Shown here piece by piece: positions 3,527 to 3,972 of a stretch of DNA of 64,000 nt. The stretch lies in the IMG/VR virus record IMGVR_UViG_2877962823_000010; one strand, given 5' to 3'. Each line of letters begins with the position of its first letter. The first letter of the stretch is position 1. Both the position numbers and the translations under genes were made by a program. Below the pieces are notes generated by a model that was given only the letters and a program-made list of their open reading frames with translations, did not search any database and had not been told where the DNA came from. The stretch comes from a virus. Lineage: Duplodnaviria; Heunggongvirae; Uroviricota; Caudoviricetes.

Positions 3527-3816
3527 CCTGGCCTGAAGCATTCGCAAATGTAGGAACAGTAATGGCGGTGGTGCTGGTTGTGTATTCGATTTGTCGCTGG
3601 AGATAAAAACGGTTTGCGGGAAAAGGAGAGTTAAGTAGAATTGCTGCGGGTGCTTGAGGCTATCTGCCTCGGGCATGAACACCAACGGCAGATAGAGAAA
3701 AGCCCCAGTTAACATTACGCGTCCGGCAAGACGCTTAACATTAATCTGAGGCTCAATCCATGCTGAACACATGTAGGTTAGCCTCTTACGTGCCGAAAGG
3801 CAAGGAGAAGCAGGCT

Positions 3817-3972
3817 ATGAAGCAGCAAAAGGCGATGTTAATCGCCCTGATCGTCATCTGTTTAACCGTCATAGTGACGGCACTGGTAACGAGGAAAGAC
3901 CTCTGCGAGGTGCGAATCCGAACCGGTCAGACGGAGGTCGCTGTCTTCGTAGACTACGAATCTGAGAAGTAA
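3817..3972 (+). CDS. hok: Hok/Gef-family type I toxin
   Basis: MKQQKAMLIALIVICLTVIVTALVTRKDLCEVRIRTGQTEVAVFVDYESEK, near-identical to HokD/RelF-type toxins; in-frame upstream extension from 3760. Confidence 0.8.
   Translation: MKQQKAMLIALIVICLTVIVTALVTRKDLCEVRIRTGQTEVAVFVDYESEK

Follow-up and report, generated by a model that had tools for sequence, protein, structure and literature searches.

The DNA analysed here, a 64,000-nt stretch referred to as the window, carries a toxin-antitoxin cassette composed of hokW, mokW and sokW. hokW encodes a small membrane toxin of the Hok/Gef family, mokW reads into hokW from an upstream start codon, and sokW is an antisense RNA gene on the opposite strand. 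These genes and the RNA elements that surround them are listed in Table 1. The functional unit begins with the hok promoter (3614) and ends with the fbi box (4034). An earlier note on this DNA, made from the letters of the sequence, placed the locus at 3600-3972, an interval that ends too early.

Table 1. Features of the hokW/mokW/sokW cassette, with positions in the window
Feature	Position	Strand	Basis
Putative hokW/mokW mRNA promoter: -35 TTGCGG (3614-3619), 16-nt spacer, -10 TAGAAT (3636-3641), 6 nt before +1 at 3648	3614..3641	+	Sequence; predicted
Core of the full-length hokW mRNA, 5' end (GGGUGCUUGAGG) through fbi	3648..4034	+	Start of Rfam match; alignment to R1
tac (translational activator) box, at the mRNA 5' end	3648..3659	+	Fold; covariation
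SokW antisense RNA, 71 nt (read from 3768 to 3698)	3698..3768	-	933W annotation; fold
ucb / anti-SD box GCCCC, partner of the mok Shine-Dalgarno	3702..3706	+	Fold; covariation
GAGG, the mok Shine-Dalgarno, 8 nt ahead of its ATG and inside the SokW-complementary region	3748..3751	+	Sequence; GAGGC conserved in alignments
mokW, 70 codons, in frame with hokW and sharing its stop	3760..3972	+	ORF list; 933W annotation
sokW promoter: -35 TTGCCT (3803..3798), 17-nt spacer, -10 TAACCT (3780..3775), 6 nt before +1 at 3768	3775..3803	-	Sequence
AAGGAG, the hok Shine-Dalgarno, 9 nt ahead of its ATG and outside the SokW-complementary region	3802..3807	+	Sequence
hokW, 51-aa Hok/Gef membrane toxin (MKQQKAMLIALIVICLTVIVTALVTRKDLCEVRIRTGQTEVAVFVDYESEK)	3817..3972	+	Pfam; PHROG; 933W annotation
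3' stem-loop (GCGGGGGA-GUAA-UCUCCCGC), 3981-3988 paired with 3993-4000	3981..4000	+	Fold; covariation
fbi (fold-back inhibition) box CCUCAACGCACCC, complementary to tac	4022..4034	+	Duplex; covariation
Second, identical cassette: mokW 61190-61402 (+), hokW 61247-61402 (+), sokW 61128-61198 (-)	61044..61464	+	Exact repeat

The region from 3560 to 4060 agrees at 501/501 nt (100.0%) with 44 phage records, among them 933W, VT2-Sakai and Stx1 and Stx2 converting phages. O157:H7 chromosomes show the same full identity, prophage Sp5 of Sakai and EDL933 included. Because the identity is complete over 501 nt in 44 phage records, chance can be excluded as the origin of the locus. The 933W genome record that carries the cassette annotation was reportedly published by Plunkett and colleagues in 1999. 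Converted to window coordinates, this GenBank record (AF125520) annotates the sokW antisense RNA at 3698-3768 on the minus strand, mokW at 3760-3972 and hokW at 3817-3972. The cassette has been characterised experimentally in Sp5 (Takada et al. 2021, PMC8621323). All of the primers used in that study match the window, so its experiments were conducted on exactly this sequence. They cover toxicity, antitoxin activity and the antitoxin promoter, the partial need for RNase III and Hfq, and, on induction, the loss of SokW and the RecA-dependent production of HokW. The cassette in the window is complete and is base for base the published locus, which is already named and studied and is, in that sense, ordinary. 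Our own observations concern its identity, open reading frames, complementarity, predicted folds and covariation.

HokW has the length (about 50 aa), the N-terminal transmembrane helix and the two conserved cysteines by which the Hok/Gef family is recognised. Its score with Pfam PF01848 (HOK_GEF), for which the cut-off is 22, is 81.1 bits (E 4.3e-23), and with PHROG_251, 'MokW-like host killing', it is 112.9 bits. In the alignment of relatives, the family-invariant cysteines C15 and C30 and the TRK-LCE motif are intact in HokW. The Hok core had been described as intact in the earlier note, and these results bear that out. Disruption of the transmembrane or cysteine residues had been named as grounds for giving up the reading, and both cysteines and TRK-LCE are in place. 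The NCBIfam Hok models scored below their cut-offs for HokW, with the Hok subfamily model reaching 53.6 against a cut-off of 73. Since Pfam and PHROGs match strongly, this shortfall is attributed to the subfamily-specific nature of the NCBIfam models. Upstream of the gene, the sequence CAAGGAG, which contains the hok Shine-Dalgarno, is kept in 18 of 19 relatives and is absent from a Pantoea locus. When induced, HokW is toxic and localises to the inner membrane (PMC8621323).

The mok ATG at 3760 lies 57 nt upstream of the hok ATG at 3817 and is therefore in frame with it, and the final 51 of the 70 mok codons are the Hok/Gef peptide. The frame is preceded by its own GAGG Shine-Dalgarno and stays open to 3972, passing the hok ribosome-binding site, as a mok frame does. 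Translation of hokW itself may be coupled to it by analogy with R1. The in-frame extension from 3760 had been suggested in the earlier note to replace or mimic a mok-like coupling frame. An upstream coupling frame is indeed what is found, but nothing is replaced or mimicked, as the extension is mokW itself in the 933W annotation.

The frame of mok was surveyed across the family in a sample of 69 distinct hok loci. Whatever its frame, the mok ATG lies 56-60 nt upstream of the hok ATG in 63/69 loci. An in-frame mok, found in 43/69, is the commonest arrangement, with a distance of 57 nt in 40 loci and 60 nt in three. At 58 nt, mok is in the +1 frame of the R1 type (15 loci), and at 56 nt a 19-codon mok ends on the hok start (five loci). 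No mok ATG was found in the remaining six. In the five loci with the 56-nt distance (L007, L027, L028, L031 and L084), the mok stop overlaps the hok start in an ATGA-type junction. Judged from sequence, this is a candidate for coupling by termination and reinitiation, a style that differs from the R1 form as well as from the in-frame one. We had considered whether the in-frame mok of this locus is an oddity. That idea was rejected because most of the family has mok in frame, and it is the out-of-frame 70-codon mok of R1 that is in the minority. The mok of R1 is out of frame with hok, as is borne out by the loci encoding R1 Hok (58 nt, 70 codons). In R1, this '70-aa mok leader' needs to be translated only as far as the hok Shine-Dalgarno (PMC9841398). 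A mok start that is fixed in position while its frame varies fits this finding.

The shared frame and stop also raise the question of whether MokW is itself a toxin. MokW contains the whole of HokW behind a basic N-terminal extension of 19 residues, and the Hok domain still scores 79.8 bits within the 70-aa product. The NCBI pipeline calls the homologous product 'toxin MokC', and the in-frame arrangement prevails in the 69 loci surveyed. MokW could, on these grounds, be a membrane toxin and either a second product of the locus or its main one. However, the existence of the 15 loci with a +1 mok and the five with a 19-codon mok points to selection on the mok start and not on the product. In R1, stop codons placed in mok downstream of the hok start leave toxicity unaffected (PMC9841398), and hokW expressed alone from pBAD24 is toxic (PMC8621323). 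A toxic MokW, which would add to the main explanation of the locus, therefore seems unlikely to us.

SokW is predicted to fold with a free energy of -29.9 kcal/mol (z -4.95). In this fold, a single-stranded 5' tail of 14 nt is followed by a long terminator-type hairpin and UUUU. The 14 unpaired nucleotides are complementary to 3755-3768, across the mok AUG. As a whole, the complement of SokW covers the mok Shine-Dalgarno and start codon and stops short of the hok Shine-Dalgarno and start codon. Coverage of this kind suggests the indirect control through mok that is characteristic of the family. SokW is thus a cis-encoded antisense RNA over the mok initiation region only, with its own promoter and a terminator hairpin, as expected of a Sok RNA. 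The -35 element of its promoter overlaps the hok Shine-Dalgarno on the opposite strand, and the position of the promoter is conserved in 19 relatives (TATCCT or TAATCT at -10; TTGCGC or TTGACC at -35).

Published experiments support both the RNA and its promoter. sokW RNA was detected by northern blot, is made from its own promoter and counteracts HokW (PMC8621323). When primers YO-421 and YO-422 are placed on the window, the 'pro-less' construct is seen to turn the sokW -10 element TAACCT into GAGCCG. This -10 mutation abolished antitoxin activity, and the antitoxin effect was only partly lost in RNase III and Hfq mutants (PMC8621323). The partial loss in these mutants was weighed against the preferred explanation.

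A scan of 3400-4200 for consensus promoters and terminators returned 0 promoters and 0 terminators, and this result was counted against the preferred explanation. We did not accept it as proof of absence. Both promoters are weak matches that fall below the hexamer thresholds, yet they lie at conserved positions, and one of them has been validated by the published mutagenesis, so we take the negative scan to be a threshold artefact. The hok promoter was not called because its -35 element matches the consensus at only 3/6 positions. Its -10 element, TAGAAT, aligns with TATAAT, TACAAT or TAGTAT in relatives. A Sok-like antisense RNA in the leader, which the earlier note had expected and had proposed to check by looking for an antisense promoter and terminator, is thus present. 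It is annotated in 933W and folds with a terminator-type hairpin, and behind the negative crude scan stand the TTGCCT-17-TAACCT promoter, the hairpin with its UUUU and the loss of activity on -10 mutation.

The leader from 3648 to 3822 matches Rfam RF01794 on the plus strand (E 1.2e-26); the match has 113.5 bits, and the gathering score of the family is 59. This family is named 'sok' and models the hok leader that is complementary to Sok, so its hits lie on the strand opposite to the antitoxin gene. A plus-strand antitoxin, as the strand of the match would suggest, was rejected since the 157-nt model spans the hok mRNA from its 5' end to the hok AUG. The strand called by RF01794 should not be taken as that of the antitoxin. 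Weak Rfam matches to ceN48, sR2 and HgcC did not come near their gathering scores, and we took them for chance hits.

The match to RF01794 begins at G3648, and in the alignment this is where the hok mRNA of R1 starts (GGCGCUUGAGG). From this end, the RNA has the elements of a conformational switch, whose names and roles (tac, fbi, ucb and the last stem-loop) were defined for R1 (PMC9841398). The minimum free energy fold of 3648-4036 has -158.8 kcal/mol (z -6.2) and pairs 3648-3659 (tac) with 4022-4034 (fbi), which joins the two ends of the message. As a duplex with the 5' 13 nt, fbi gives -21.5 kcal/mol. When the RNA is cut to 3648-4004, just past the 3' stem-loop, its 5' end refolds into a local hairpin in the minimum free energy structure. 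The helix of 3701-3712 with 3741-3753, which contains the anti-SD box and the mok Shine-Dalgarno, is predicted in both the full-length and the shortened RNA. The shortened fold has no tac/ucb helix and leaves the mok Shine-Dalgarno paired, which was counted against the preferred explanation. We set the missing tac/ucb helix aside as evidence because a minimum free energy fold of a single sequence was judged uninformative on that point.

The predicted helices were compared with those of relatives. For this, 79 loci from other genomes and nine annotated loci were collected, 19 diverse full-length mRNAs were aligned and their pairs were counted. One locus of E. coli S3 (L009) was left out of the covariation set; its 5' end reads GGGGAC and its fbi box GCAGCC, without compensation, and from its sequence it is probably a decaying hok copy. 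Across the 19 loci, the tac/fbi helix is 98.4% paired, with a compensatory change from U-A (nine sequences) to C-G (10). The helix of 3660-3668 with 3687-3695 is 98.8% paired and shows an A-U to U-A swap. For the anti-SD/mok Shine-Dalgarno helix, pairing is 84.8% and G-C covaries to A-U (11 vs 7), and for the 3' stem-loop it is 97.1%, four pairs of which have changed on both sides. For all helices together, 77% of cells are paired in the relatives, compared to 38-45% in controls with the partners slid by 1-3 columns. The covariation score is 0.177, compared to 0.05-0.08 for the slid controls. In most of the 44 loci with a locatable 5' end, the fbi box lies about 195-220 nt after the hok ATG. 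The locus therefore has the long-range tac/fbi pairing, the mok Shine-Dalgarno sequestered by an anti-SD box, and a stem-loop between the hok stop and fbi. The earlier note had placed a hairpin after the stop, at about 3976-4000. That hairpin is real and GC-rich, and it corresponds to the stem-loop whose exact position is given in Table 1. By homology to R1, it would be the last stem-loop, which bounds and protects the 3'-processed, translatable mRNA. It is not a terminator.

Downstream of fbi, hokW has no intrinsic terminator, and the best fold of the following 70 nt (4035-4105) has only -7.3 kcal/mol. In 15/18 relatives, with hokD, hokC and R1 among them, a strong terminator with a GC-rich hairpin and U-run lies within about 20 nt of fbi, a feature that is common in the family and not defining for it. 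Homology between hokW and hokD extends from 3523 to 4044 and stops just where hokD has the start of its terminator. On the plus strand, a terminator-like site follows only at 4452-4474, beyond a gene at 4092-4436. With the intrinsic terminator missing, the hokW mRNA has an undefined 3' end, at which the processing clock would start, and this was counted against the preferred explanation. A terminator is not discussed in the experimental study (PMC8621323). In one relative, from Photorhabdus cinerea (L044, about 530-560), UUUUUU follows straight after fbi with no separate hairpin, and its sequence suggests that the tac/fbi helix itself might serve as the terminator stem.

The gene at 4092-4436, on the plus strand directly downstream of hokW, encodes a secreted protein with an OB fold, which belongs to the NirD/YgiW/YdeI family of stress tolerance. 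Its product scores 136 bits with NCBIfam and 114 bits with the Pfam BOF model and is labelled only 'hypothetical' in 933W and Sp5. It is likely a moron gene. hokW could be cotranscribed with this gene up to 4452-4474, which would change how and when fbi is unlocked, and the 70-aa MokW could at the same time be a second active isoform of the toxin. We consider this combination doubtful. If true, cotranscription could tie the activation of HokW to prophage induction and not to the classical 3'-trimming clock.

The lost terminator also bears on whether the locus is a decayed, non-functional relic, as most chromosomal hok loci of E. coli K-12 are. In favour of decay, the hokC of K-12 is interrupted by IS186 just downstream, and some of the loci sampled have no mok ATG or recognisable leader. 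At hokW, however, the elements from promoter to fbi are all intact and the sequence is conserved at 100% in 44 phage records. The toxin, antitoxin and deletion phenotype data obtained on the exact sequence (PMC8621323) already refute decay, and we give it next to no credence.

The cassette is present twice in the window. Positions 1-522 belong to the chromosome and hold the 5' end of wrbA; the att core is where the prophage begins. The segment 523-6570 equals 57953-64000 without a mismatch, which amounts to 6,048 nt repeated exactly 57,430 nt later. The window is thus one complete prophage of the 933W/Sp5 type plus the start of a second, in tandem at wrbA. The int-att-accessory junction (about 57931-57970) is contiguous in only five matching complete E. 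coli records, two of which are chromosomes and three are phage-sized circular sequences.

Upstream of the hok promoter, an unannotated 27-codon ORF at 3523-3606 (+) encodes a small hydrophobic peptide (MTWPEAFANVGTVMAVVLVVYSICRWR). It is preceded by a Shine-Dalgarno-like GGTGA and overlaps the stop of the gene upstream (ATGA). Three hokD loci, two of which are identical, have kept the frame upstream with 77-81% amino-acid identity, and the homology between hokW and hokD begins exactly at its ATG. Its product has no match in Pfam, NCBIfam or PHROG.

Taken together, hokW/mokW/sokW is, with little room for doubt, a type I toxin-antitoxin cassette of the hok/sok family, carried by Shiga-toxin prophages of the 933W/Sp5 type and most likely working as R1 does. 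We infer the tac/fbi switch, the 3' processing and the mok-hok coupling in hokW by homology to R1, and with them an R1-like activation in which 3' processing of the mRNA is combined with an unstable antitoxin. In the proposed mechanism, the promoter at 3614-3641 would produce a stable hokW mRNA that starts at 3648. As long as the RNA is full length, tac would be paired with fbi and the mok Shine-Dalgarno held by the anti-SD box, and the message would be closed to both ribosomes and Sok. Slow trimming of the 3' end to the stem-loop at 3981-4000 would remove fbi, after which the 5' end would refold and the mok start would be exposed. The short-lived SokW, 71 nt in length, would then pair over the mok Shine-Dalgarno and start codon, which would block translation of mok and mark the duplex for RNase III. 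Since translation of hok would depend on ribosomes that read mok through the hok Shine-Dalgarno, the block on mok would also be a block on HokW. Once SokW is lost, mokW and hokW would be translated, and the 51-aa peptide would enter the inner membrane and damage it.

Loss of SokW follows prophage induction. After treatment with mitomycin C, sokW RNA vanishes rapidly and the stable hokW mRNA stays, and HokW is found in the inner membrane in a RecA-dependent manner about 1 hour before the endolysin (PMC8621323). Northern blots also revealed two smaller hokW RNAs of unknown identity (PMC8621323), which we counted against the preferred explanation.

The same mechanism could have a different main role. 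The 933W record notes 'prophage maintenance', the hok/sok system of R1 stabilises plasmids and lowers T4 plating (summarised in PMC8621323), and the cassette sits beside att in the accessory region, as is typical of moron genes. Its main role could then be retention of the prophage by post-segregational killing of cured cells, or abortive infection against other phages, and not help with lysis at induction. Against this, deletion of hokW-sokW delays growth arrest after mitomycin C by about 40 min and halves the release of phage (PMC8621323), and reports of a phenotype in curing or superinfection are lacking. One role does not exclude the others. We hold retention or defence as the main role to be possible, though it is not the reading that we favour, which is R1-like working of the cassette with a part in lysis.

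As a discovery, the locus has little value since it is annotated in the 933W record and was characterised in 2021. It serves instead as a positive control, in that a toxin-antitoxin locus of type I and its coupling frame were recognised correctly from sequence alone.

Compared with the known systems, the cassette in the window does not differ internally from that of the Stx2 phage 933W and of Sp5. It has the same ORFs, antisense RNA and promoter, and its flanks are shared as well, with L0139 upstream and the YgiW/YdeI-like L0136 downstream. The one difference is that the cassette occurs twice here, because a second prophage copy follows in tandem. The closest paralogue is hokD (relF) of lambdoid Qin-type prophages of E. 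coli, which has 91-94% nucleotide identity to hokW over 3523-4044. hokD shares with hokW the leader and the tac and fbi boxes, and most of its copies have the in-frame 70-codon mok. The proteins differ at the C-terminus, where HokD ends in ...FTAYEPEE and HokW in ...FVDYESEK. In addition, hokD has an intrinsic terminator (CCCGCTTCGGCGGGTTTTT) straight after fbi, which is absent at hokW.

The hokC (gef)/mokC/sokC locus of the E. coli chromosome has 75% nucleotide identity to the hokW locus. In E. coli K-12, mokC is in frame with hokC and ends on a common stop codon, exactly like mokW and hokW, and sokC is annotated at the equivalent antisense position. Unlike hokW, hokC is chromosomal and not phage-borne, its leader is without the extended hairpin of hokW and hokD, and in the K-12 copy IS186 after the coding region removes fbi.

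R1 hok/mok/sok is more distant, with a Hok that is 45% identical to HokW. Its mok begins 58 nt upstream of hok in the +1 frame, and the 70 codons encode a product unrelated to Hok (L079-L081; PMC9841398), whereas mokW begins in frame, 57 nt upstream. In the leader of R1, the first hairpin is longer and the Sok hairpin shorter than in hokW, and R1 has a terminator after fbi, which hokW is without. The layout is nevertheless that of hokW: tac, fbi, the ucb/anti-SD box, the mok Shine-Dalgarno, the Sok promoter over the hok Shine-Dalgarno and the 3' stem-loop are at equivalent positions, and the tac/fbi helix and the 3' stem-loop have been retained between the two through compensatory changes.
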